DNA of 64,000 bases. Source: an uncultured Acidimicrobiaceae bacterium. Lineage in GTDB: Bacteria; Actinomycetota; Acidimicrobiia; Acidimicrobiales; RAAP-2. Where the stretch lies: assembly GCA_963734395.1 (NCBI GenBank), contig CAVTGY010000003.1:271878-335877 (forward strand). Direction: 5' to 3'. Below the pieces are notes generated by a model. It made no database searches, was not told the DNA's origin, and was given only the letters and a program-made list of their open reading frames with translations. The position numbers and the translations under genes are program-made. Below are positions 7,139 through 53,215 of the stretch, piece after piece (the first letter of the stretch is position 1; the number at the start of each line of letters is the position of its first letter).

Positions 7139-8026
7139 ATGGCCGGCAACAGCTCGAATCTGCGTGACATGACCGGGCGCACGGTGGTAATCACCGGCGG
7201 CAACAGCGGAATCGGCCGGGCAACCGCCCAGGCGCTCGCTGGGCTGGGAGCTCGTGTGGTGATCACCTCCCGCAACGCCGACCGGGGTGTGGCCGCGGTC
7301 CGCGACATTCGTCAGACGAGCGGTAACGACGCCGTCGACTGGGTTCCCCTCGACCTGGCCAGCCTGGCATCGGTGCGGGCCTGTGCCGCCGACCTGCTTG
7401 ACCGTCTCGACCAGATCCATGTCCTGGACCTGAACGCCGGGGGTGTGCTGTCCCGTCGGACGGAGACCGAGGACGGGTTCGAATCACAGTTCCAGGCCAA
7501 CCACCTCGGTCACTTCCTGCTCAGCCAACTGCTCGTCGACCGGGTGAAGCAGAGCGCCCCGGCCCGGGTCATCGTGCTGTCGTCGTGGGGTCATACCCAG
7601 GCACGAGGTGGTCTGGATTTCAACGATCTCCAGTGGGTGGTCCGCCCCTACCGGGGTTCGATGGTCTACAGCGCCACCAAGCTGATGAACCTCTACTTCA
7701 CGTTCGAGCTGGCCCGCCGGCTGGCCGGGACCCAGGTGACGGTGAACGCAGTCCACCCCGGTTTCGTGGCATCAGGGTTTGCCATGTCGGGAGACACCAA
7801 TCTGCTCCGGTTGGGGATCATGGTCGGTCGACCCTTCGCCCGCTCCCCGAAGAAGGGGGCGGCGACGGCCATCTGGTTGGCGGCTTCCGACGAGGTGGAG
7901 GGTGTCACCGGCAAATACTTCGCCGACTGCAGGGAGAAAGCGCCGTCAGCTGATGCTTTGGACGGCGACTCGTCCCGGCGCCTGTGGGAGGTGAGCGCGG
8001 ACCTGATCGAGTCAGTCGAGGCGTAG
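7139..8026 (+). CDS. SDR family oxidoreductase (retinol-dehydrogenase-like)
   Basis: TGGNSGIGRATA cofactor motif, catalytic YSATK, NAG motif, 295 aa. Confidence 0.9.
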   Translation: MAGNSSNLRDMTGRTVVITGGNSGIGRATAQALAGLGARVVITSRNADRGVAAVRDIRQTSGNDAVDWVPLDLASLASVRACAADLLDRLDQIHVLDLNAGGVLSRRTETEDGFESQFQANHLGHFLLSQLLVDRVKQSAPARVIVLSSWGHTQARGGLDFNDLQWVVRPYRGSMVYSATKLMNLYFTFELARRLAGTQVTVNAVHPGFVASGFAMSGDTNLLRLGIMVGRPFARSPKKGAATAIWLAASDEVEGVTGKYFADCREKAPSADALDGDSSRRLWEVSADLIESVEA

Positions 8027-8058
8027 GCCGCAGCCGGTACGCCACCGAGTGAATGGCG

Positions 8059-8370
8059 TCAGACCGAATCGCGGAAGTCCGCACCGGCGGAAAGCGCGGC
8101 TACACCATCCATGATGTCGACCACCGGAACCACTTCGAACTCCAGCCAGGTGACGAACTTGGAGACCTCATCCATGAGACCCGCCTGATTGTCGGTCTCG
8201 ATCACCGCGTATCCGCCTTGACCGTCGATGCGCTGGAGGAACTCGGCCCACTTTTGATCTGCCGGCGTCTGCCACCTGGCAAACGTCGCCGTAATGGACC
8301 TTCCATCCTCGTGGTTCTGCTGGGCGGTGCCCTGGGCACGGTTCTTCCAGCTCATCAGATACTTCGCCAT
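8059..8370 (-). CDS. DUF3303-like small protein
   Basis: ORF 8059..8427. The ATG at 8370 is preceded by GAGGAGGAG. MAKYLMSWKNR...GGYAVIETDN...LEFEVVPVVD matches my recollection of the DUF3303 family. Confidence 0.65.
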   Translation of the reverse strand: MAKYLMSWKNRAQGTAQQNHEDGRSITATFARWQTPADQKWAEFLQRIDGQGGYAVIETDNQAGLMDEVSKFVTWLEFEVVPVVDIMDGVAALSAGADFRDSV

Positions 8371-8445
8371 GACTCCTCCTCTACCGCGGGTCCCCGCCGC
8401 TCGGGAACGCTGCAGCGATTGTTGCATGTATCCGGCGAGGAGGCA

Positions 8446-9141
8446 CTAGGAGCCGGCTGTGTCCAGCTGGCGTGAGCTGGGGCTTGTTGCGAAGACCACG
8501 GCCGTGGCCAACACGGTCACCGCCACCACCACCAGCGGCCATGTCGCCCCGGTATGGAGGTAGAGGGCGGCTCCACCCACGGCGCCGATCAGCATCGCCG
8601 CTACCGCCGAGGTCCTCCGGGCCACCTTGGGGTTGGAGCCACCGGCCAGGGAGGAGTCGGCAGCCAACCCGGTCAGCGTCATGGTCAGGACGGTGGTGGT
8701 GATGTCCGGTACGGCGAGTCTCCGGATGGTGGAGTTCCGGACGCCCATGGCGAAGGCCAGTACCGAGATGACCGTGTACCGGCCAGAGCCCGAGGTGACC
8801 ACGCCCGAATGAATGGCGCACACGATGGCGGCGACACCGGAAAAGAGGCCTTCGATCACCAGCGCAATCAGCAGCCAGTAGCGACGTGAGGTGACATGCC
8901 GTGTGACCCTCCCGGCGGCGACGGCACCGACCAGGAATGAACCGAGCGACGCAAGACTGGCCGCCACCGAGAACCCCGGTGCACCTGCCGTGGCGAACCC
9001 GAGGAGGACCACGTTGCCGGTCATGTTGGCGGTGAAGACGTGCCCGAGGCCCAGGTAGCTCACGGCGTCGACCATGCCGCTCATCACCGTGAGCAGGGTG
9101 AGTGTGCCGAGCAGCATCGTCGATGGTTCCGATTCGTTCAC
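8446..9141 (-). CDS. YoaK/DUF1275 family membrane protein
   Basis: LLTVMSGMVDAVSYLGLGHVFTANMTGNVVLLG signature and multiple TM helices. The start is uncertain (9177, GTG 9141 with GAGAAGG upstream, or ATG 9117). Confidence 0.8.
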   Translation of the reverse strand: MNESEPSTMLLGTLTLLTVMSGMVDAVSYLGLGHVFTANMTGNVVLLGFATAGAPGFSVAASLASLGSFLVGAVAAGRVTRHVTSRRYWLLIALVIEGLFSGVAAIVCAIHSGVVTSGSGRYTVISVLAFAMGVRNSTIRRLAVPDITTTVLTMTLTGLAADSSLAGGSNPKVARRTSAVAAMLIGAVGGAALYLHTGATWPLVVVAVTVLATAVVFATSPSSRQLDTAGS

Positions 9142-29044: not shown

Positions 29045-29415
29045 TCTGCGGCCTGCACAAGAAGCGCTTCGATCTTGTCAAGCAATCGGACGAACTCGAT
29101 CGGCTTGGTGTCATAGTCGTCGCAACCGGCAGCCAGAGCTCGCTCCTCGTCACCAGCCATCGAATGGGCCGTCAACGCGATCACGGGAACAGCGGAGGTG
29201 CTCGGATCGGCTTTGAGCTCTCCCGCCGCTTGCCATCCGGTGACCACCGGGAGACTCATGTCGAGCAAGATGAGGTCGGGAGGATCCGTGCGCGCGGAGG
29301 CCAGGCATTCAGCACCATCGACCGCGGTGGTGACCTGGTAGCCGCGGCGCGCCAAACGCCGGGAGAGCATGTCGCGATTGAGCTCATTGTCGTCGACAAG
29401 GAGGATCCGGCTCAT
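29041..29415 (-). CDS. stand-alone response-regulator receiver (CheY-like)
   Basis: ILLVDDNELNR, phospho-acceptor context LILLDMSLP, ALTAH, DDYDTKP. ATGA overlap with the upstream histidine kinase. Confidence 0.9.
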   Translation of the reverse strand: MSRILLVDDNELNRDMLSRRLARRGYQVTTAVDGAECLASARTDPPDLILLDMSLPVVTGWQAAGELKADPSTSAVPVIALTAHSMAGDEERALAAGCDDYDTKPIEFVRLLDKIEALLVQAAD

Positions 29416-30859
29416 TCGGACACGTCCGCCCTGGCTCCGGCGGCTACGGCCGGAAGTTGGTCTCCGCTGTTCGACCTCCCTCTGGCGTTCCGAGGTAACC
29501 GGACGGTGAACGTCGAACCCACGCGGGCCTCACTTTGAGCATCGATGGATCCACCCAGGATCTCGCAGAACTGCCGGGTAATCGACAAGCCGAGCCCGGT
29601 TCCCCCGAAATCGCGAGCGGTCGAGTCCTCTGCTTGAACGAATGCGTCAAAGACGCGATCAAGCTGTGCCGTCGACATCCCGATGCCGGTGTCCCGGACA
29701 ATGAACTCAACAAACTCGGAGCCTTGGTTGTGGTCAACCCTTGCGTTGAGCGTGATCACCCCTCCTTGGGTGAACTTGCATGCGTTGCTGAGAAGGTTGA
29801 GGAGAACTTGACGAACCTTTGTCGGGTCCGAGCACATCGAGCCGAGGTGACCGGGTGCGATCATGTCGAGTCGGTTGGAGTTCTGGTCTACCAGCGGGTT
29901 GATCGTGTCGGATAATTCCCGCAACAGGTGATCGAGGTCAAAATCCTCGACCTTGACGTCCATCTTTCCCGCCTCGATCTTGGAGAGGTCGAGCACACCG
30001 TTGATGAGGGACAGTAGATAGCGTCCGGAACTGGCAATGCGACCGATATCCAGCATGTAACTGTCGCCGCGCTCCCGGCCTCCTCTTCGATCAACTCGCT
30101 GTAACCGATAATCGCATTGAGAGGCGTCCTCAGCTCGTGGCTCATGTTGGCGAGGAAGTCACTCTTTGCCCGGCTGGCCTGGAGCGCCTCGTCACGAGCA
30201 ACCGCCAGTTCCGCGGTTCGGGACTCGACCTTACGCTCCAGCGTCCGCTCGGATTCGCGCAACGCCTCGTTCGCGGCCATGGCCTCATCGATCGTGTCTT
30301 GCATTCGCGCACCCGATTGCGAGATGGAAAGCATGCACAGAACAGCACCGATGAGCGTTCCTACCGGTACCAGAACGCGCAGCAACGTGTCGGGTAACGG
30401 GTTTAGCGACATCAGCGGATTGAGGGACGCGAATATCGCACCCACGGTCAGGATTCCGGTGGCTCCGATTATGAGGCGAAGGAGGTGCTTGCCAGTGACG
30501 AATGGGAGGGCAATTACGACAGCCAAGATGGAGAAGACGGCAGTGAGGGGCCAGAGCCGGGGTGCGAAGATGCCGGTTGTCACCGTTTGACACCAGACCC
30601 CGATCACCAGGGCGGTGACGGCCACTGCGATCCGGTCGCTACGCGCGTAGTGCTTCGCGAACCGCTGAGCGACGATCGTCAATAGCAGCCCAACCTCCAA
30701 GACGATCAGAATGGGAGCACGATAGAGCAGGAAGTAGAGAAGGAGGATGACCAGCACGGTCAGGGGTGCCGCCGGCTCATTGAAGCGAATGAGTTGACGA
30801 AGTCGGTCGGCACTCACTTCGGTGGATTGGTCTGTGGCGTCCGCCGGCGTCGATGTCAT
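29412..30859 (-). pseudogene. membrane histidine kinase (multi-TM sensor, HisKA, HATPase_c) split by a 1-nt frameshift at a GGG run (30074-30076)
   Basis: ORF 29888..30985 carries the TM region and the H-box [26 protein letters not shown] 29412..30056 carries the rest ([17 protein letters not shown]-box LLNLLSNACKF, DTGIGM, GGTGLGLSI). The frame of the second ORF is open upstream as ...[11 protein letters not shown]. Start ATG 30859 is preceded by GGTGAGG. Confidence 0.85.
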
Positions 30860-30966
30860 CGCCTCACCGTTCCTTCCAGCTCCAGCATGTCCACCAGCCA
30901 GTACTCCTGGTCGCATTGTACGATACGGAGCCATGAACGGCGCCGCCGACGGCGGGCGAACCGCAG

Positions 30967-32337
30967 GTGACGGTGAGTGAGACACGGAGCGCCCTGCGGA
31001 GTCTGCAGCATGCGCTGAGGACCCGACTCGGTCAGATCATCGGGTACGGCGAGCTTCTGGAAGAAGATCTTCGCGATCGCGCGATCATCGATCTCCTGCC
31101 TGACGTCAAGCGCATCGTTGACGCGGCGCACGAGCTGCTCCACGATTTCGACGGACCACTTTTTGCGGGCGAGGCCGAACCGGCGCCGTTGAAGTCTGAG
31201 CAAACCACAGGGGAGGATGCGGTCCGGCCTGCCGACGGGGACCGGTCCGGCCGCATCCTTGTGATCGATGACGAGGAGTCGAACCGTTCTCTTTTGCGCC
31301 GACGGCTCATCGGACAGGGTTATTCGGTGTCGGAGGCCAGCAGCGGGGCTGGTGCGCTCAGGATGATCGAAGACGAGTCCTTTGATGTGCTGTTACTCGA
31401 TTTCATGATGCCGGAAATGGACGGCCTCGAGACCCTTGATGCGATCCGCAAGAGGTACTCGATCTCTGAGCTCCCGGTGGTCATGGCGACCGCTCGTACC
31501 GATCGTGAAGATGTTGTACGGGCTTTGAATCATGGGGCGAACGACTACGTCGGCAAGCCATTCGACTTCAGCATCGTCATTGCCCGCGTCCAGACACAAC
31601 TCGCACTACGAACAGCCGGTCGTGAGATCGAATCCCTGTTGCACCAAGTCGAAATCCGCAACGCATTCCTGCGCCAAACGCTCGGCCGGTACCTCTCCGA
31701 CGATGTCGCCGCCAGCCTTCTCGATCGCGACGATGGACTGGAGATCGCGGGTGAGCGTAGGCGGGTAACCGTGTTGATGACCGACCTACGCGGATTCACC
31801 TCTCTCACCGAACGCCTGCAACCGCGCCAGATCATCGCGACCCTGAATGAGTACCTGGGGGCAATGACGGGAGTAATCGATGATCATCAGGGGACGGTCG
31901 ACGAGTTCATCGGCGACGGGATCCTTGCTCTGTTCGGTGCATTTGGACAACGTGAGGATGACGCCCAGCGGGGCATCGCCTGTGCAGTCGCCATGCAAAC
32001 CGCGCTCCGTGATCTCAATGATCGCAACCGGCAACGCGCAATGCCGGAAGTGGCGATGGGCATCGGAATCGCCACTGGTGATGTCGTCGTCGGCAACATC
32101 GGCTCGGAGAAGCGCTCGAAGTTCACGGCGATCGGGAGTGCGGTCAACCTTGCGGCGCGCCTTGAGGGCCGTGCGGGAGGCGGCGAGATCCTGATCTCGC
32201 CCCAAACCTACGAGGACGTCCAGAAGCTGGTCGATGTCGAAGAGCTGCGCGAACTGGTCCTCAAGGGTTTTGACGGCGTCGTTGAAGCCCGCAGTGTCTC
32301 TGGCATTCGCAAGGCACACGGGCTCTCTTCAACATGA
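30967..32337 (+). CDS. DHp(HisKA-like, no ATPase) - receiver - class III nucleotide cyclase fusion protein
   Basis: N-terminal [26 protein letters not shown] aligns with the H-box of the neighbouring kinase and keeps the His. REC motifs ([35 protein letters not shown]). Cyclase motifs ([40 protein letters not shown]). Confidence 0.85.
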
Positions 32338-33663: not shown

Positions 33664-33757
33664 GCGGCCCCGAAGTTGGTGAATGGGTAATCACACCCGT
33701 GTAATCGTCACACCCCGGCTGCACCCTGATTCCGAACCAATAATCGGAAGGAATCAG

Positions 33758-34657
33758 ATGACCAAGGTGCTCGATTTGGATTTGAAGGTGGGCGATGGAG
33801 TGGCAGTTGGAGGACTCAGGGTCTTCCCGCTGACCGGTCAGAACCCGGGTGGACCTCCCTACCTGACCGGACCCGAAGCCTGCGCGGAGGGACTCATCGA
33901 GGTGAACGAACTCGACCCACCGCGGGTGCCGTTCCTAGCGGTGACCAATCTGGCAGAAGTGCCGATCCTGCTCGTCGAGGGGGAGATGCTCATCGGCGGG
34001 GACCAGAACCGAACCATGAACGTGACGGTCCTGTGCCCACCGCGAGCACTCATGCATGTGCCTGTCTCCTGTGTCGAAGCCGGTCGGTGGGGAGCGAGAC
34101 GGGCGGTGTCCGCCTCGAGGAGGCACGCACCCGGATCGCTCCGGGCGGCCAAGACGGCAAGTCTGGAGCCGAGGACGAGTGACGATTCGAGTCGGCGATC
34201 CGATCAGGGTCGGGTGTGGGATGAGGTCGACCGCCAATCGATTGCTCACGGCGTCAACTCGGAAACTTCAGCCCTGGAGGACGTCCAGCTGGAGGTCGAG
34301 GCCCGCCTGTCCGACGAGCTCGATCGGATCGAACCGCTGCCTGATCAGGTCGGTGTCGTATGCATGATCGGAGACCGGGTGGCGGGGTTGGATCTCTTCG
34401 ACAAGCCCACAACACTCGGGAAGTACCTGCGCGGGATCATCGCCGGCCATGTCCTCGACGCGCCGTCGTCGAACTGGAACTCGGATTCGATCCGGGTCAT
34501 CGAACGCTTCCTCGGTCAGATCGACTCGGCGGGACGGGACAGCGGGCGAGGCGTGGGCCTCGGAGAGGAGATCTTCCTGCACGGAGACGTGGCCGGGGTA
34601 GGTCTCACCTACGAGGAACGCCTGATTCATCTGGCCGCTTTTGCAACGCCGGCATGA
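33758..34657 (+). CDS. ARPP-1-like family protein (unknown biochemical function)
   Basis: ORF 33683..34657; ATG 33758 is preceded by GGAAGGA. The pattern LRVFPL...YLTGPEA...GLIEVNEL...VPILLVEGEMLIGGDQNRTMN...PVSCVEAGRWG is what I remember for the ARPP-1 family. Needs HMM confirmation. Confidence 0.55.
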   Translation: MTKVLDLDLKVGDGVAVGGLRVFPLTGQNPGGPPYLTGPEACAEGLIEVNELDPPRVPFLAVTNLAEVPILLVEGEMLIGGDQNRTMNVTVLCPPRALMHVPVSCVEAGRWGARRAVSASRRHAPGSLRAAKTASLEPRTSDDSSRRSDQGRVWDEVDRQSIAHGVNSETSALEDVQLEVEARLSDELDRIEPLPDQVGVVCMIGDRVAGLDLFDKPTTLGKYLRGIIAGHVLDAPSSNWNSDSIRVIERFLGQIDSAGRDSGRGVGLGEEIFLHGDVAGVGLTYEERLIHLAAFATPA

Positions 34658-35676
34658 ACCATCGCCATGGGAGACTGACCTTCGTGAGAGGTTTCGATGT
34701 CATCGGTGACGTCCACGGCTTTGCTGACAAGCTCGAGGGTCTCCTTCAGGAGCTCGGTTACGAGGAGCGAGACAGGGCCTACCGGTATGCGGGATCCGGG
34801 GAGGAGCGCCAGGTCATCTTCGTCGGCGACCTCGTGGACCGCGGTACCCAGCAGATCAAGACCCTCGAGATCGTGCGCGCCATGGTCGACGCCGGCAGTG
34901 CCCAGACGGTGATGGGAAACCACGAGTTCAACGCCATCTCGTTTGCCACGCCCGACCCGGAGAAACCCGGGGAGTTCATGCGGCCACACAACAAGAAGAA
35001 CCGGATGCAGCACAAGGAGTTCACCACGCAGATCCCGGTCAATACCCGCTTGTATGCCTACTGGATCAGGTGGTTCACGACGCTCCCGCTCTGGCTCGAT
35101 CTCGGCGGGATCCGAGTCGTCCACGCCTGCTGGAACAGAGGCCAGATCGACAAGGTCAAGGAGTGGGTGCCGCCCGGAACCCCGATGAGCAGCGAGTTCG
35201 TTGTTCGGGCCAACCGCAAAGGGCGCCCGGAACACAGGGCAATCGAGGTGCTGCTCAAAGGTCCCGAGCTGAGTCTCGCCAAGCACGGGCAGCCGGGCTT
35301 CCGGGACAAAGGTGACCACGTTCGAAACGAAGCACGCATCCGCTGGTGGCACGCCGAGGGGAGAACTCTCCGTGAGCTGGCCGAAATCCCACCGGATGCG
35401 AAGACCGAACGCGGTGGCGAGTACCCACCGCTCCCCGATGACCCCTGTCCGGAAGAGGCGGTCTACGACTACCGCGACCCGATGCCTGTCTTTTACGGCC
35501 ACTACTGGCGCAAGGGAGAGCCGACCAAGGGAGAGGACTGGACCAGCAACACCGTTTGTGTGGACTTCAGTGCCGTAAAGGGTGGGCCTCTTGCGGCCTA
35601 CCGGTGGAATGAAGGCGAAGAGATCTCTTTCGAGCATTTCGCCGCCTACGAAGGCAACAAACAATTGGGCAAGTAG
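34654..35676 (+). CDS. PPP-family metallophosphoesterase (PrpE/ApaH-like, possible Ap4A or protein phosphatase)
   Basis: The ATG at 34654 overlaps the upstream stop (ATGA). Motifs DVIGDVHG, FVGDLVDRG, MGNHEFN, VVHACW, FYGHYW. Confidence 0.85.
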   Translation: MNHRHGRLTFVRGFDVIGDVHGFADKLEGLLQELGYEERDRAYRYAGSGEERQVIFVGDLVDRGTQQIKTLEIVRAMVDAGSAQTVMGNHEFNAISFATPDPEKPGEFMRPHNKKNRMQHKEFTTQIPVNTRLYAYWIRWFTTLPLWLDLGGIRVVHACWNRGQIDKVKEWVPPGTPMSSEFVVRANRKGRPEHRAIEVLLKGPELSLAKHGQPGFRDKGDHVRNEARIRWWHAEGRTLRELAEIPPDAKTERGGEYPPLPDDPCPEEAVYDYRDPMPVFYGHYWRKGEPTKGEDWTSNTVCVDFSAVKGGPLAAYRWNEGEEISFEHFAAYEGNKQLGK

Positions 35677-35679
35677 ACG

Positions 35680-38600
35680 ATGGCAGATCGCCTGCTCACC
35701 CCTTCGAAGCTCACCGCGTGGCTGGACTGCGCGCACTTCCTGAACCTGAGGCACCAGGTCGACGTCGGCACCCTCACTATCGATCCGCCGGGATTCGGCT
35801 CGCTCGCGCACCTTCTGGTGGAGAAGGGCAATCAACACGAGGAAGACTGCCTGGCCGCCTATCGCAGCGAGGGACTCGACGTCTTCGAGGTTCCCGGCAG
35901 GGACCGCGGTGAGCCGTTCGCCGACTGGGTGGACCGGATCGGCAACCCCCTTGACTCAGGCCATGACGCGCTCTATCAGATGCCATTCATCCATGAGGGG
36001 ATCCGGGGGATCGCCGACTTCCTCGTATGGGTCGACGATCCCGACCCGGATTACTGCGTCTGGGAGCCGGTTGACGCCAAGCTGGCCCGCTCGGAGGCCA
36101 AGCCGGGTCATGTGCTTCAGCTCTGCTTCTACGCCGAGGCCCTCGAAGCCCTGACTGGCCACCCACCGAAGCACATCCACCTGTGGCTCGGCTCGGGTAA
36201 GACAGAGTCATTGCTCACCGAAGAGTTCCAGCCCTACTGGCGCCGGCTGCGTACGCAGCTGATCGCCCTGCTGGATGAGGACTCGGCGGACCGCGAGACG
36301 TCCCCCGAGCCCTGCGCCCACTGTGCCTTCTGCGAATTCCAAGAGACGTGCACGAAGGAATGGAGGGACAGCGATTCCCTGATCTACGTGGCGGGTATCC
36401 GGAGTGCCGAGCGAGCCAGTCTGGAAGCTGCCGGCGTGGATACGTTGGCCCAGCTCGCCGTCCAAGCGGGCCCAATCGACAGCCTCCCCTCTGAACGGCT
36501 CAGTCGTCTCGTTGAACAGGCAACCCTGCAAGCTGAGGCTCGGGTCGAAGAGCAAGTGCCGCCCCCCGTAGCGATCATCGAACGTTCCGAAGACACCACC
36601 TGGGGGCGGGGCTTCGAACTCATGCCCAAACCGGACGAGGGTGACGTCTTCTTGGATTTCGAGGGCGACCCGTTCTGGCGGGCCGACGTCGGTCTGTTCT
36701 TCCTTTTCGGTCTGATCGTCCGCTCCGATGAGGGCAACTGGGACTACCGGGCGTTCTGGGCCCACGACGAGGACGAGGAATCCGAGGCTACGCGCCATTT
36801 GATCGAGATCCTGAGCGAACGTCGTCAGACCTTCCCGGACATGCACGTCTACCACTACAACCACACAGAACGCTCTGCCCTCGAGCGGCTCACCGCAGAA
36901 CACGGAGTGGGGGAGGCGGCATTGACCGCACTGATCGAGACCGGATTCTTCGTCGACCTTCTCCCAGTGGTCCGCAACTCCATGCAGGTCGGCACCGAGT
37001 CCTACGGGCTCAAGGACCTCGAGAGGGTCACCGGCTACGTCCGGGGTCACGACATCGACCAGGGATCGGCGGCGGTCGTCGAATACGAGCAGTACATGAC
37101 CGACCACGACCAGGCCCACCTCGATCGCATCGCCGCCTACAACGCCGACGATGTGCGCTCGACGTTGGCTCTGCGGGACTGGCTGGTCAGCCAGCGGCCG
37201 GAGAGTCTCGTGTGGCGCGCCGCTTGTTTGGAGACTGAGGAGGTCAACCCTGAGCTCAACGCCCAGGTGGAGGCCCTGCACACCTTCGGGCCGGAGACGC
37301 CCGAGCACCTCCTCGGCGACTTGCTCGGCTACTGGTGGCGGGAACTTCGCGCCCATACGGCCCAGCAGCTGGCCAGGACTCTGGCCGACACTCCGGTTCT
37401 CCTCGACGATCCGGAGGTGATCGTCGGACTCGAGTACGTGGGTCCGTTCAAGCGCATCAGCCAGAAAGGGAAGCCGCTCAAGTGGGATGGGGTCCGATTC
37501 CAGTTCGTCGACCAAGATGTCTCGGCCTTCGATGCCAGGCGCGCCGCCGGCGTGCTCTACTCCACGCCGGAGGGCCCCGTCGGATATGCCGACATCGATC
37601 ACATCGACGCTGAATCTCGCGAGCTGGTGCTGGTCTGGAACCAACAGTCACAGGATCTGGGAATCCTCCCCTCGACGATCGTCATCAACGGTTGGGTGCG
37701 GGCGGGGCCAAAGGCTGAGGCCTTCGACGAGTTGGCGGCCAAGGTGCTCGATCCCGACGCCGACTCTCCGAACCGCGCTTCTCTGGCCCTTTTGCAACGG
37801 GAGCTCCCCCGGTTCGAATCAGGCCACGAGCCCGGCGGCGGCACCTTCGCTGACGATGTCGAATCCATCCTCGACTGGGCGCCGTACCTCGATCACAGCT
37901 ATGTGGCCATCCAGGGGCCGCCGGGTACCGGAAAGACCTTCCGGGGTGCCCACATCGTCCATGAGTTGATCAACAGGGGCAGGCGGGTGGGCATCATGGC
38001 CATGAGCCACAACGCCATCGACAACCTTCTGGCCGGAATCATCGGGGTCTTCGACGAGCAGGGCGACCTTGGCCAGCTCCGCTGCATCCGCAAGGACGAT
38101 GAACCTGATGATGGTGGTCTGCCGGGGGTGGAGTACACGGATTCGATTCAGCGGTGTGCCAAGGACGAATACAACCTGGTGGCAGGCACCGCGTGGTTGT
38201 TTTCCAGCAAGTTCATAAAGGAGTCACCGGTTGATGTACTGATTATCGACGAGGCGGGCCAGCTGTCACTCGCCGATGCACTGGCCGCTTCTCGGTCGGC
38301 GTACAACCTCATCCTGTTGGGCGATCCGCTGCAGCTTCCACAGGTGACCCAGGCGTCCCACCCCGGCGGAGGAGGCTTGAGCGTTCTCGAACACGTCATC
38401 GGCGGAGAGGGGACTATGCCTCCGGACCGTGGCGTCTTTCTCCGAGAGACCCGCCGGATGCACCCGGATGTCTGCCGGTTCATCTCGGATCAGATCTACG
38501 AGGGGCGTCTGGTCAGCCATCCGAGTTGTGCGACCCAGAACACAGAATTCGGCACCGGTCTGCGGTGGCTGGCCGCGGACCACGTCGATCGCTCCACCGA

Positions 38601-39045
38601 ATCCGAGGAGGAAGCCGAGCTCGTCGTGGCCGAAATGGGCCGGCTGATCGGAAGCAGCTGGATCGACCAGCACGGGCACCGTGCTCCGCTCGGCGTCGGG
38701 GATTTCATGGTGGTGGCTCCATACAACGATCAGGTTCACCTCCTGCGGGACCGCCTCGAAGCAGATCGCCGGACCCACGGTGTGAGCGTGGGAACGGTCG
38801 ACAAGTTCCAGGGACGAGAAGCACCTGTGGTCTTCTTCACCATGACCGCGTCCAGTGCCGAGGATGTGCCCCGGGGGTCGGAGTTCCTCTTCTCACGCAA
38901 TCGCCTGAACGTGGCCATCAGCCGAGCACGTTGCCTCGCCTATCTGGTCTGTACCGAGCAGCTCTTGAACAGCCGCGCCCACGATGTGGAAGAGATGCGG
39001 CTGGTCTCGACATTGTGCGCGTTCGTTGAGTACTGCACTCGGTGA
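35680..39045 (+). CDS. RecB/Cas4-like PD-(D/E)xK nuclease + RNase-H-fold module + Upf1/Dna2-like SF1B helicase fusion (TM0106-type)
   Basis: Starts 3 nt after the phosphoesterase stop. Nuclease motifs GIADFL, PVDAKL, QLCFYAEAL. Cys cluster LDC...CAHCAFCEFQETC. RNase-H-fold motifs DFEGDPFW, YHYNHTE, YNADDV. Helicase motifs GPPGTGKT, IIDEAGQ, LLGDPLQLPQV, RRMHP, VDKFQGREAPVVF, NVAISRAR. Confidence 0.85.
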   Translation: MADRLLTPSKLTAWLDCAHFLNLRHQVDVGTLTIDPPGFGSLAHLLVEKGNQHEEDCLAAYRSEGLDVFEVPGRDRGEPFADWVDRIGNPLDSGHDALYQMPFIHEGIRGIADFLVWVDDPDPDYCVWEPVDAKLARSEAKPGHVLQLCFYAEALEALTGHPPKHIHLWLGSGKTESLLTEEFQPYWRRLRTQLIALLDEDSADRETSPEPCAHCAFCEFQETCTKEWRDSDSLIYVAGIRSAERASLEAAGVDTLAQLAVQAGPIDSLPSERLSRLVEQATLQAEARVEEQVPPPVAIIERSEDTTWGRGFELMPKPDEGDVFLDFEGDPFWRADVGLFFLFGLIVRSDEGNWDYRAFWAHDEDEESEATRHLIEILSERRQTFPDMHVYHYNHTERSALERLTAEHGVGEAALTALIETGFFVDLLPVVRNSMQVGTESYGLKDLERVTGYVRGHDIDQGSAAVVEYEQYMTDHDQAHLDRIAAYNADDVRSTLALRDWLVSQRPESLVWRAACLETEEVNPELNAQVEALHTFGPETPEHLLGDLLGYWWRELRAHTAQQLARTLADTPVLLDDPEVIVGLEYVGPFKRISQKGKPLKWDGVRFQFVDQDVSAFDARRAAGVLYSTPEGPVGYADIDHIDAESRELVLVWNQQSQDLGILPSTIVINGWVRAGPKAEAFDELAAKVLDPDADSPNRASLALLQRELPRFESGHEPGGGTFADDVESILDWAPYLDHSYVAIQGPPGTGKTFRGAHIVHELINRGRRVGIMAMSHNAIDNLLAGIIGVFDEQGDLGQLRCIRKDDEPDDGGLPGVEYTDSIQRCAKDEYNLVAGTAWLFSSKFIKESPVDVLIIDEAGQLSLADALAASRSAYNLILLGDPLQLPQVTQASHPGGGGLSVLEHVIGGEGTMPPDRGVFLRETRRMHPDVCRFISDQIYEGRLVSHPSCATQNTEFGTGLRWLAADHVDRSTESEEEAELVVAEMGRLIGSSWIDQHGHRAPLGVGDFMVVAPYNDQVHLLRDRLEADRRTHGVSVGTVDKFQGREAPVVFFTMTASSAEDVPRGSEFLFSRNRLNVAISRARCLAYLVCTEQLLNSRAHDVEEMRLVSTLCAFVEYCTR

Positions 39046-51916: not shown

Positions 51917-53215
51917 TCAACGCAGCTGCGCCTGCATGCTCAAGATGTCGCCACCCACCTCATCCTTTACGTCTGAACCGATGGCGGCCTGATCCGCACA
52001 CTCTGACCAGGAGTCCACGGCGTCGAGAACGGTGCCAATGATCGCTCTCGCATCCGGCACCTCGAAACGATCACCGACCATCACCAGATCAGACCGAGCG
52101 ATTTCTTGCGTTTGGCCGTTCACGGCCATCAGATGCTGGGCGGTCCAGTAGCTCTGCGGATTGTGTGCGTGCGTAACGTCGTACGCAGGGGCGAGCCGCC
52201 AGGTGCCGTTCTTATGCAGGAAGAAGGAGAAGTTCTTGGTGTGATCGTCGCAGTTTGCCGCGGCCACGTTGAAGACCATCCGACGAAAAACCTCAGCAGC
52301 TGCCACCGGTCCAGGGTCGAGGCGCTCTGCAGCCTCGAAGAGCTGGGCATAGTCGTGGGCTCCGACCAGCCGGAAGTCCATGTGAGCGAGCGCGCACAGG
52401 GTCTGAACATGCACCTTTGTGCCATCTTGGGGACGGTCGAAGCGCCGAGTCATGAAGTGCGCCCGGCCACCCTCGTGAAGCAAGCGGCATGCCGTCATTT
52501 CGATGCCGGCAGCCTTGGCCATCAACGAGTAGGCGTACTCGATCCGTCCGTAGTCAGCCGACTCGCCGAGATCCAGATCGACCCCAACGCCGTCGAACTT
52601 CAACAGCCATTGTTCGAATCCGGGATCCGAGGGGACCTGACCGGAGCGCACCTCTCCAGTCGTCGGGTTCCAGGCCACCACGGCCTTGGCGCGTGCACCG
52701 CCGGCTGAGGTTCCAACTGCGATCAGGTGGCGGACTGATTCGGTAATGCCGTCCTCGGAATCGAACGCCCCAACGACAGCAGAGCGGGCGGCGAGTACGA
52801 ATTCGGAGAGGTCGATAGCAGTCGCCTTGCGAGTTCGCGGCCCTCGAGTGGGTCGGAACTCGAGCGCTCCGAGGCCGCGCGACGCCAGGTAGGCAAGGCG
52901 GTCGAGCGGCGTGATTGCACTTGTCGATACCCCTTCGCCCACGAGGTATGCGGTGGTAAGCGCATTGCCGAAGGCGTCGGGGAGCGAATCGGCAAGCATT
53001 GCGGGAAGCCGGTGGAACGTCTCAACGGGTAGCGCGGGAAACACGTAACGGCTCTGGTCGAGCGGCATGGTTGTCGGCGCAAGCTCGATGCCGCTTGCTT
53101 GCCAAGTGGGCGCGTACTCAAAGACGTAGTAGCCGGTGGCCGGGTCGAGGGCGACAGCGCCGACCCGGTCGCCCCATGCGAGTACCTCTACGACATCAAC
53201 GGGCTGGTATGCCAT
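51917..53215 (-). CDS. hipA: type II toxin HipA-family Ser/Thr kinase
   Basis: HipA N-terminal coupling region, P-loop-like GTSAGGARAKA, catalytic ANCDDHTKNFSF, Mg-binding LAPAYDV. 432 aa. Confidence 0.9.
   Translation of the reverse strand: MAYQPVDVVEVLAWGDRVGAVALDPATGYYVFEYAPTWQASGIELAPTTMPLDQSRYVFPALPVETFHRLPAMLADSLPDAFGNALTTAYLVGEGVSTSAITPLDRLAYLASRGLGALEFRPTRGPRTRKATAIDLSEFVLAARSAVVGAFDSEDGITESVRHLIAVGTSAGGARAKAVVAWNPTTGEVRSGQVPSDPGFEQWLLKFDGVGVDLDLGESADYGRIEYAYSLMAKAAGIEMTACRLLHEGGRAHFMTRRFDRPQDGTKVHVQTLCALAHMDFRLVGAHDYAQLFEAAERLDPGPVAAAEVFRRMVFNVAAANCDDHTKNFSFFLHKNGTWRLAPAYDVTHAHNPQSYWTAQHLMAVNGQTQEIARSDLVMVGDRFEVPDARAIIGTVLDAVDSWSECADQAAIGSDVKDEVGGDILSMQAQLR

Follow-up and report, generated by a model that had tools for sequence, protein, structure and literature searches.

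Background

ARPP proteins were defined by Iyer, Burroughs, Anantharaman and Aravind (2022, Viruses 14:1977; PMC9503650, section 3.8) as accessories of ARG-centric systems, which are predicted to counter viral ADP-ribosylation. According to that study, TY-chaperones and WYL/Nudix regulators accompany the core (a one-component regulator occurs in ~42% of systems), a calcineurin-like, HD or HAD phosphatase may replace the rhodanese-phosphatase, REase nucleases 'linked to helicases' are listed among the accessory genes, and free ADP-ribose is proposed to be processed by the phosphatases and sensed by the regulators. For ARPP itself that study described an orphan fold in which one Cys and one Gln are absolutely conserved, possibly acting on ribose. 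Here we analyzed a trio of genes on the + strand of a 64,000-nt stretch of DNA from an uncultured Acidimicrobiaceae bacterium (hereafter the window), encoding an ARPP-1 protein (gene 1), a calcineurin-like metallophosphoesterase (gene 2) and a nuclease-helicase fusion (gene 3). On an evenly balanced judgement, this trio may be a variant of the predicted ARG/ARPP conflict systems that lacks ARG, and a mobile module that is directed at DNA and induced by a damage signal.

Like the published systems, the trio has ARPP-1, a calcineurin-like phosphatase coupled to ARPP and a REase-fold nuclease linked to a helicase, and orthologous loci hold TY-Chap3, ARG-DSPc, SIR2/Macro-type genes and WYL regulators, with a content that is variable around the core. 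Unlike them, it has neither the defining ARG nor a Nudix/WYL regulator in the whole 64-kb window, its combined TM0106 nuclease, RNase-H-like and superfamily 1 (SF1) helicase partner is not named in PMC9503650, and the links of the trio's family to Ku/LigD/AdnAB/RecC genes and to a PafBC-type promoter point to DNA, not protein. The window trio consists of only 'accessory' parts of the network described by Iyer et al. The original prediction, made from the sequence of the window, had placed the trio among conflict systems with ARPP and set its calcineurin-like partner apart from the linkages it cited; the placement held, but PMC9503650 already gives such a partner. Because that paper allows both calcineurin-like phosphatases and helicase-linked nucleases, the combination is less unprecedented than first supposed, and the trio is not categorically new, this kind of system having been predicted in print. 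New are the ARG-less trio itself, the TM0106-helicase as the main partner of ARPP in Acidimicrobiaceae, the cassette behaviour of the block, the links of ARPP to double-strand-break (DSB) machinery and the PafBC-type promoter across phyla.

Organization of the locus

Gene 1 (33758..34657, +; ARPP-1, DUF6569, 299 aa), gene 2 (34654..35676, +; PPP-type metallophosphoesterase, 340 aa) and gene 3 (35680..39045, +; a 1121-aa fusion of TM0106-type nuclease, RNase-H-like exonuclease and SF1 helicase) follow each other directly. The stop of gene 1 and the start of gene 2 share GCATGA, giving an ATGA overlap at 34654-34657, and the TAG of gene 2 at 35674-35676 is followed by 'acg' and then by the ATG of gene 3 at 35680, a gap of 3 nt. 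The three open reading frames (ORFs), the overlap and the gap were all verified in the sequence. All motifs that had been named for the three proteins were likewise found: LRVFPL, VPILLVEGEMLIGGDQNR and PVSCVEAGRWG in gene 1, GDVHG, GDLVDRG, GNHE, HAC and GHYW in gene 2, and C...CxxCxxCx5C, DFEGDPFW, YHYNHTE and YNADD in gene 3, which also contains GPPGTGKT and DEAG. For gene 1 the ORF list gives a start at 33683. The ATG at 33758 is preceded at a distance of 5-11 nt by the Shine-Dalgarno sequence GGAAGGA (33747..33753, +; read from the sequence and kept in the upstream-region alignment) and agrees with the starts of >100 homologues; the start was therefore placed at 33758. Upstream lies a promoter/operator element (33684..33736, +) that is conserved alongside ARPP genes. 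The three genes are one transcription and translation unit behind this element, and the operon structure proposed earlier is borne out by the overlap, the 3-nt gap and the recurrence of the block described below.

The block recurs, is replaced and decays as a cassette

Surveyed loci are designated by L numbers. Positions 33689-39036 of the window aligned with positions 9931-15339 of L009, another Acidimicrobiaceae genome, at 76.5% DNA identity over 5,424 nt; nothing outside 33689-39036 aligned, and the flanks are unrelated. From the limits of this alignment the block starts ~70 nt upstream of gene 1 and ends at the stop of gene 3, and the unrelated flanks place it at different chromosomal sites in the two genomes. 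As the same 5.4-kb block recurs in this setting, the arrangement of the trio is more than chance.

A second comparison concerned one and the same chromosomal site, L009:4943-15392 and L012:5212-9712, where both flanks share ~97% nucleotide identity. Between these flanks the ARPP proteins were 66% and the nuclease-helicases 51% identical, ARPP was inverted, and L009 carried ~6 kb of additional genes, among them TY-Chap3 and the phosphoesterase. The site looks like a hotspot or variable island.

Decay was seen for each of the three genes. A 60-nt remnant of the 5' end of gene 2 lies between ARPP and helicase in L006, and a 26-residue remnant of gene 2 was found in L011. In L086 the helicase (71% identical) is intact, the ARPP region, 72% identical in DNA, is split into short ORFs, and no phosphoesterase was found at the locus. 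L085 has the helicase (76% identical) alone, and in L015 the helicase is broken into three ORFs beside an intact ARPP. Since the helicase survives alone and ARPP survives decay of the helicase, a toxin-antitoxin-like dependence is excluded and an obligate three-part complex is unlikely. Altogether, the three genes travel together as one block, near-identical genomes carry exchanged versions of it, and its genes are lost one at a time.

The window trio is the smallest self-contained ARPP version found here, with three genes and one promoter in 5.4 kb. Natural 'mutants' with loss of the phosphatase, an ARPP pseudogene or the helicase alone are at hand, together with a concrete regulatory prediction.

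Two further explanations were tried and rejected: toxin-antitoxin logic, in which ARPP and phosphatase restrain a toxic nuclease, failed on the helicases that are intact where ARPP is a pseudogene or absent, and a recent foreign origin by composition failed on a GC content inside the block that resembles the surroundings. In L006, one ORF with both IS21-family transposase and IstB ATPase domains (rve_3, Mu-transpos_C_2, IstB_IS21; 7391-9127) lies 0.9 kb upstream of the ARPP/nuclease-helicase pair, from which the phosphoesterase has been lost.

Neighbourhoods of the three gene families

The survey comprised 80 ARPP-anchored, 80 phosphoesterase-anchored and 8 helicase-anchored loci; ARPP loci were searched for genes 2 and 3, and all neighbouring ORFs were clustered de novo. 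The trio was not an obligate unit: all three genes were found together in three distinct loci only (the window, L009 and, rearranged, L014), whereas its pairs recurred.

The gene 3 family was the commonest neighbour of ARPP, present within 10 kb in 9 distinct loci of ~80. For a single-copy gene in a 3-4 Mb genome ~0.4 such loci would be expected by chance (a random single-copy gene falls within 10 kb of ARPP in ~0.5% of genomes), both values being rough estimates that ignore kinship. ARPP, phosphoesterase and helicase are colinear in the window and L009, while L006 has ARPP followed by the helicase. In L014 (identical to L004) the helicase is on the opposite strand, followed by phosphoesterase and ARPP, and in L011 and L012 the helicase is divergent from ARPP; L015, with its broken helicase, also counts among the nine. 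The Chromatiales locus L045 has ARPP, an adjacent helicase and then a HEPN-SNF2 gene, and in Bryobacterales (L065) the helicase lies 5 kb from ARPP. These loci from Actinomycetota, Gammaproteobacteria and Acidobacteriota represent four types of arrangement (colinear, either with or without the phosphoesterase; divergent; and a form in which the phosphoesterase stands upstream), which argues against inheritance of one accident.

It would be conceivable that there is no functional unit at all, gene 3 being an independent selfish or repair gene beside which ARPP and phosphoesterase landed, with the tight spacing as an accident of compaction. Each gene indeed occurs without the others in most surveyed loci. 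We nevertheless consider this very unlikely in view of the 9 loci against ~0.4 expected, the four arrangements across three phyla, the pairing of the phosphoesterase with the nuclease-helicase independently of ARPP, a helicase-less TM0106 nuclease in a plasmid ARPP-ARG operon, and the start/stop overlap of genes 1 and 2. The earlier caveat that a helicase might merely sit downstream likewise fits poorly with ARPP and nuclease-helicase being adjacent in at least four arrangements in three phyla.

The window, L009, L010 and L014 were the only loci in which a member of the gene 2 family adjoined ARPP. Among gene 2 relatives in 80 metagenome loci (39-68% identity), a nuclease-helicase was a neighbour in 5-6, ARG in 6 and TY-Chap3 in 2; on Burkholderia plasmids gene 2 relatives occur with Nudix and ARG. 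The neighbours of ARPP, in turn, included ARG or ARG-DSPc (9 loci), HTH-WYL-WCX (7-11 of 80), MBL-fold (5), SIR2_2 (5) and TY-Chap3 (4) genes, besides NYN and HDAC-like genes. ARG is present at the related loci L010 and L088 and at the plasmid locus L171. These neighbourhoods agree with the network that Iyer et al. described. Thus, pairs of these families (ARPP/nuclease-helicase, phosphoesterase/nuclease-helicase, phosphoesterase/ARG and ARPP/ARG) recur independently in several phyla and on plasmids.

Two loci show the ties of ARPP to ADP-ribose enzymes in detail. The Pimelobacter simplex plasmid pA-N39 (L171:7001-12351) carries an operon in which ARPP is followed by a 94-aa protein, then ARG, then a TM0106 nuclease of 550 aa that has no helicase, and finally a 324-aa protein; this plasmid operon stands between the published ARG systems and the window trio. 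In Lamprocystis purpurea DSM 4197 (L064:9980-13069) a 1,029-aa protein fuses ARPP-1, vWA and a microbial-type PARG catalytic domain, a direct physical link of ARPP to poly/mono-ADP-ribose hydrolysis in a cultured organism. The conjugative plasmid pMAQU02 of Marinobacter nauticus (L174:2921-12425) carries a gene 2 homologue with an SOS-response-associated peptidase (SRAP), a WYL protein, a DEAD helicase and a 1,117-aa protein of the STY4851/ECs_5259 family that has no Pfam domain; it may be another uncharacterised module sharing the phosphatase.

A further group of neighbours belongs to DSB end processing and end joining. In the Acidimicrobiaceae clade, ARPP lies between LigD-PrimPol and Ku in L002, is divergent from an AdnA/AdnB-like helicase-nuclease pair in L007, has AdnB-like genes nearby in L022 and L019, and is 3 kb from RecC in L008. 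Such genes were found at 5 of ~20 clade ARPP loci, where ~2-5% would roughly be expected, and when the TM0106 helicase loci are added, most clade ARPP genes adjoin some DNA-end machine. Together with HIRAN and SRAP associations, these neighbours suggest that the substrate polymer is DNA and not protein.

A conserved promoter element of PafBC geometry upstream of ARPP

The element upstream of gene 1 has the consensus GAATnACAcCnnTGTAAyyGTCACACC-N8-CAnnCT and precedes clade ARPP genes whatever their neighbours are. In the window its GTC is at 33707-33709 and a -10-like CACCCT at 33722-33727 (A at 33723, T at 33727). Sixteen positions were invariant in an alignment of 13 loci, and a position-weight-matrix scan of 2.1 Mb gave 21 loci with a score of at least 45 bits. 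The window has a single copy of the 15-mer core, and 18 of 168 loci have it, always upstream of ARPP except for one copy (L035:14721-14773), which stands before a 157-aa NYN-like gene in an Acidimicrobiia metagenome-assembled genome and hints at a small regulon. NYN genes also adjoin ARPP in L010, L022 and L044.

PafBC promoters have the consensus tGTCgg(N10)tA(N3)T, with a strictly conserved GTC as '-26 element', a normal -10 and no -35 (PMC8635444). The ARPP element shares this geometry: the spacing GTC-N13-A-N3-T is that of the PafBC consensus, with A 16 nt downstream of GTC and T 4 nt further, and there is no -35 box; the regular expression GTC.{13}A.{3}T was found in 17 of 20 clade loci. 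It differs from the PafBC regulon in the extended conserved sequence upstream of GTC and in the C at the first -10 base. From the promoter geometry we infer PafBC-like WYL control of the element, which would mean induction by single-stranded DNA (ssDNA) or DNA damage; no WYL gene was detected in the window, and the PafBC-type promoter suggests a regulator acting in trans.

In other phyla, (TGACC-N6-)TGTCAC-N10-tA-N3-T was present within ~100 nt upstream of ARPP in 9 of 61 loci, where shuffled sequences gave an expectation of 0.55 and a maximum of 3 in 500. Four of these nine loci have an adjacent HTH-WYL-WCX gene, and for the neighbour in L055 this architecture was confirmed by Pfam. At such non-actinobacterial TGTCAC promoters the regulator would have to be an adjacent HTH-WYL-WCX protein, not PafBC.

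An RNA leader or riboswitch upstream of gene 1 was also considered and dropped, Rfam giving noise only. For a hairpin sequestering the ribosome-binding site the consensus energy was -0.55 kcal/mol and many pairs were broken; it would also lie partly upstream of the predicted transcription start; a DNA promoter/operator was preferred.

Gene 1 encodes an ARPP-1 protein of orphan fold

Its assignment to ARPP-1 had been made by motif and was confirmed by profile search, gene 1 matching Pfam PF20208 over the full length (E 7.9e-74, 249.1 bits, cut-off 27; residues 9-295 span profile positions 2-297 of 297). The essentially invariant Cys and Gln of the family are present as C105 and Q83. An alignment of 40 ARPP sequences (27-56% identity) showed E51, G75, G80, R85, R110 and W111 to be invariant; at the same depth C105, Q83, N88, E107, R129, Q150, W154 and H291 were conserved in at least 90%. 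The family comprises ~6,400 clusters at 50% identity (E ≤ 0.001). ARPP had no match in 50,697 phage records, and a literature search for DUF6569 gave none either.

An AlphaFold2 (AF2) model of gene 1 reached pLDDT 80 and pTM 0.83. Foldseek searches of PDB and BFVD with this model returned nothing below E 0.1 (TM ~0.1), and a profile search of the PDB sequences was empty. Structural homology was given up as an approach to ARPP, as the model was adequate yet found no neighbour in PDB or BFVD. ARPP-1 is an orphan fold without a solved or recognisable relative in the PDB/BFVD searches.

The phosphoesterase resembles the phosphatase domain of Pnkp

Gene 2 matched PF00149 with 41.9 bits (gathering score 21.5, E 2e-10). 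Its five metal-binding motifs (GDVHG, GDLVDRG, GNHE, H157 and GH283) were invariant in 4 orthologues, as were the metal-site residues D19, H21, D59, N89, H90, H157 and H283. The phosphoesterase motifs reported in the original prediction were therefore confirmed, and its comparison with PrpE/ApaH was not: the best NCBIfam match was Pnkp TIGR04075 (E 4.3e-30, partial; 104.6 bits against a cut-off of 750), followed by PrpE NF010148 (E 2.9e-17; 63 bits against 340) and ApaH NF001204 / TIGR00668 (best E 2.7e-13; 49.9 against 176 and 24.7 against 222.85 bits), and gene 2 fails the whole-protein equivalog cut-offs of Pnkp, PrpE and ApaH alike. The nearest PDB entry was 4J6O, deposited as 'Metallophosphoesterase' (E 8e-17), with an alignment confined to the N-terminal ~80 residues and one C-terminal stretch; we take this entry to be the Pnkp phosphatase domain of Clostridium thermocellum. 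Judged by these similarities, gene 2 appears closest to the phosphatase domain of bacterial Pnkp, an end-healing enzyme. It shares the binuclear metallophosphoesterase core and N-terminal motifs with Pnkp of Pnkp-Hen1 RNA repair; unlike Pnkp, it has no kinase, no ligase/adenylyltransferase domains and no Hen1 partner, and ~170 central residues do not align.

These results also bear on the proposal that the trio follows nucleotide-second-messenger logic, with ARPP as sensor or adaptor and a phosphoesterase that makes or degrades an Ap4A-like or ADP-ribose-derived signal gating the nuclease-helicase. The weak similarity of gene 2 to PrpE/ApaH Ap4A hydrolases, the processing and sensing of free ADP-ribose proposed by Iyer et al. 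(PMC9503650) and a class III cyclase fused to a response-regulator receiver (REC) 1.4 kb upstream, which matches PycC models, would speak for it. Gene 2 scores higher on Pnkp than on PrpE/ApaH, however, and stays below every cut-off; the cyclase is absent from L009 and forms an ordinary two-component pairing with a histidine kinase; and gene 3 has no nucleotide-sensing domain recognisable by Pfam scan. No signal generator, be it a cyclase, CD-NTase, TIR or SIR2, accompanies the trio in a conserved manner, which leaves the nucleotide-signal logic of the original prediction unsupported. The components are, moreover, separable, with an intact helicase after loss of ARPP and phosphoesterase (L085, L086) and an ARPP that outlasts decay of the helicase (L015), and obligate sensor-effector coupling is therefore unlikely. 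Altogether we regard this mechanism as improbable.

The nuclease-helicase fusion is found in variable contexts

The three-module architecture described earlier for gene 3 was recovered by profile search, as TIGR03491, RNase_H_2, AAA_11 and AAA_12 all matched. The match to TIGR03491 (TM0106) covered residues 125-502 (196.6 bits, cut-off 97.45, E 7.3e-58), and RefSeq likewise uses the TM0106 name for plasmid and genome homologues. Residue conservation was read from a 12-sequence alignment reaching down to 33% identity. The first domain, a PD-(D/E)xK nuclease (35695..36354, +; PDDEXK_1 1.3e-07, Cas4 models 1.8e-07), has D113, E129, D132, K134, Q147 and Y151 invariant and a Cys cluster of Cas4/AddB type (C17 ... 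C215-x2-C218-x5-C224), of which C215, C218 and C224 are conserved in at least 90%. The second, RNase_H_2 (36646..37188, +; PF13482, 2.8e-22), is a DnaQ-like predicted exonuclease with invariant D326, E328, H392, N488 and D491. The third is an SF1 (Upf1/Dna2-like) helicase core (37855..39045, +; AAA_11 and AAA_12) with an invariant Walker A motif (G746-T753), D857-E858, Q885, R926, G1038-G1045 and R1082; its PDB relatives are IGHMBP2, Upf1, Dna2 and Sen1. With Cas4 the protein shares fold, catalytic residues and Cys cluster only: it scored 29.3 bits on TIGR00372 (cut-off 65), and no cas genes were among the scanned neighbours.

Gene 3 resembles AddAB, AdnAB, RecBCD and Dna2 in that its SF1 helicase is fused to a PD-(D/E)xK nuclease whose Cys cluster is of the Cas4/AddB/Dna2 type, and ARPP orthologues adjoin AdnAB-like and RecC genes as though one such machine could stand in for another. 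It differs from AddAB/AdnAB/RecBCD in being one polypeptide, in its additional DnaQ/RNase-H-like exonuclease domain, in the Upf1/IGHMBP2 (AAA_11/AAA_12) type of its helicase, which is not UvrD/RecD, and in a patchy, plasmid- and island-associated distribution. The logic of an SF1 helicase with a nuclease effector is also that of the defence systems with one or two nuclease-helicase genes (Nhi, Hhe, Mokosh MkoA/MkoC, ProA and the PLuB helicase), and the helicase domain is partially similar to MkoA (1.2e-42) and PLuB (3.5e-24). Gene 3 stays far below the cut-offs of ProA (33 vs 1500) and Hhe (20.5 vs 2000), however; alignment with these defence proteins is limited to the helicase core, and the nuclease and RNase-H modules are different. 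For the trio, PADLOC-DB v2, with models for Mokosh, Dpd, Nhi, AbiO, Druantia and other systems, gave only partial helicase and Cas4-like matches, all to gene 3 and none to genes 1 and 2.

Full-length relatives of gene 3 (~35% identity) are present on 58 plasmids, one of them amid integrase, VapBC and HNH genes; the 50,697 phage records gave only trivial helicase matches. Publications retrieved for TM0106 were irrelevant, and those on Rv1251c, a putative orthologue, were uninformative. Relatives with 59-64% identity lie beside IS110, GmrSD, YoeB/Phd, an SMC-like ATPase and an SNF2-NOV_C helicase (Mycobacterium heckeshornense); beside ARG, a 1,586-aa AAA_11/12-MTES_1575 helicase, DUF6998 and ISL3 (Iamia); with NERD and AbiEii; with a KAP NTPase and ISL3; with PRiA4_ORF3 and AAA_16; and beside NOV_C and a 2,024-aa RNase_T/DEAD/Cas3-like protein. 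The possibility raised earlier of a housekeeping helicase is not borne out by these solitary relatives, which occupy variable, island-like contexts and no syntenic core.

On the Phenylobacterium plasmid pA (L170:2603-9336) a full-length gene 3 homologue directly follows a cluster of multiubiquitin, E2/UBC, ThiF(E1), DUF6527 and SDH-type protease genes, and the nuclease-helicase may be an effector for other conflict systems too. Four small overlapping ORFs without Pfam domains (116, 144, 82 and 84 aa; L177:3740-5004) head the operon of another homologue and may be alternative accessory genes.

Proposed mechanism and the question of repair or immunity

It seems an even call whether the trio is, as we prefer to read it, a horizontally exchangeable operon, an ARG-less and regulator-less derivative of the published systems that acts on nucleic acid, most likely DNA. 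In such a pathway, a PafBC-like HTH-WYL-WCX regulator would sense ssDNA or damage and turn on transcription via the GTC(-26)/-10 hybrid promoter. ARPP-1, with its cluster of invariant Cys, Gln, Glu, Arg and Trp and a conserved basic helical segment, might recognise or chemically attack a sugar moiety on the polymer, with ADP-ribosyl or ribosyl adducts and abasic or blocked ends as possible substrates. Next, the Pnkp-like phosphoesterase would strip the phosphate-bearing remnant, be it a 3'-phosphate, a 2',3'-cyclic phosphate or a phosphoribosyl group, and the putative Fe-S nuclease, exonuclease and SF1 helicase would unwind and resect DNA, so that host DNA is cleared of the lesion or marked foreign DNA is destroyed. 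The nuclease-helicase would be self-sufficient, with ARPP and phosphatase as facultative front-end modules that could also serve AdnAB-like, RecBCD and Ku/LigD machines. If this DNA-directed reading is true, it joins three hitherto separate fields, ADP-ribose conflict systems, WYL/PafBC damage sensing and DSB end processing, and the role of ARPP becomes directly testable.

A bolder version, which we regard as rather improbable, makes ARPP-1 the missing enzyme that recognises or cleaves the lesion in a pathway under WYL/PafBC control against ADP-ribosyl or other sugar adducts on DNA, possibly made by DarT-like or phage ADP-ribosyltransferases, and the trio a mobile 'de-adduct, heal the end, resect' unit. 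If true, the trio would represent a new class of hybrid between DNA repair and immunity, with a front end (ARPP and phosphatase) that plugs into interchangeable machines (TM0106 helicase, AdnAB, RecBCD, Ku/LigD).

Several observations weigh against a mobile conflict module. The family-level ARPP conflict model is itself a prediction, and the substrates of genes 1 and 2 are wholly inferred. The promoter assignment consists of geometry and five consensus positions; ~22 nt conserved upstream of GTC (GAATnACAcCnnTGTAAyy) lie outside the known PafBC site, and the first -10 base is C, not T as in the PafBC model. The full trio is rare, with none of the 80 phosphoesterase-anchored loci containing ARPP. 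Genes for ARG, Macro, WYL, Nudix or TY-chaperone proteins are missing from the window, no mobile-element gene stands beside the trio, the GC content shows no anomaly (0.63-0.64 in the block vs 0.60-0.64 in surrounding windows), and PADLOC (PADLOC-DB v2) gave no match for genes 1 and 2. In the Acidimicrobiaceae clade ARPP is well conserved (60-86% identity over >100 clusters), which is unlike the fast evolution typical of immunity genes. Finally, plain DNA repair would account just as well for PafBC-type promoters and for neighbours such as Ku/LigD/AdnAB.

Clusters of helicase, metallophosphoesterase, MBL-exonuclease and ligase genes, known as 'ligase-associated DNA damage response' clusters, are analogous in logic to such a repair operon. 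The trio would then be an ordinary, vertically useful operon of the PafBC regulon, a damage-induced pathway of end healing and resection, and we consider this possible, if on the unlikely side. In a similarly tentative assignment of roles, the phosphoesterase would clean 3' ends, the nuclease-helicase would resect, and ARPP would be an accessory lesion- or end-binding factor. Consistent with this are the PafBC geometry of the promoter, ARPP orthologues between LigD-PrimPol and Ku and beside AdnAB-like, RecC and MBL-fold genes, the closeness of gene 2 to the Pnkp end-healing phosphatase, a chromosomal, quiet window without mobile genes, the high conservation of ARPP, and ARPP and gene 3 having no meaningful match in the 50,697 phage records. 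On the other hand, a repair operon would not readily explain a module of 51-66% identity and differing gene content between flanks that are 97% identical, the pseudogenes and deletion scars, or the different chromosomal places of the trio in the window and L009. Relatives of gene 3 occur in defence-island-like contexts rich in insertion sequences and on many plasmids, and the partners ARG, PARG, SIR2, HEPN and NYN are domains typical of conflict systems. The damage may come from invaders or toxins, which would make the module one of immunity, or be endogenous, which would make it one of repair; even as a merely accessory repair operon the trio would be a new partner for actinobacterial end processing.

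Surroundings of the trio in the window

Within the 64-kb window, tblastn with two ARG proteins of related loci gave no ARG, and Pfam scans of 20 neighbouring ORFs none either; a WYL homologue was found neither in the window by tblastn nor among the scanned neighbours, and SIR2 and MBL genes are absent from the window. A defence island was considered and rejected, as PADLOC was empty for 9 of 10 neighbours.

The fusion of a response-regulator receiver with a class III nucleotide cyclase lies at 30967-32337, 1.4 kb upstream of the trio. It matches the Pycsar PycC models (E 1e-27) through homology that class III cyclases share in general. The fusion has a histidine kinase as its partner and is not kept beside the trio at other loci, the homology with L009 beginning at window position 33689; it is probably ordinary signalling. 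The histidine kinase, divergent from the fusion (29412-30985, - strand), is divided between two overlapping ORFs, 29888-30985 with HisKA (a truncated profile match) and 29412-30056 with HATPase_c, probably by a frameshift, genuine or an assembly error. On the other side, a HipA-family kinase (Couple_hipA and HipA_C; 51917-53215, - strand) lies 13 kb downstream of the trio, and in L002 an HTH-HipA pair (17-1662) lies ~8-10 kb from ARPP; the proximity of HipA to ARPP loci is probably coincidence.

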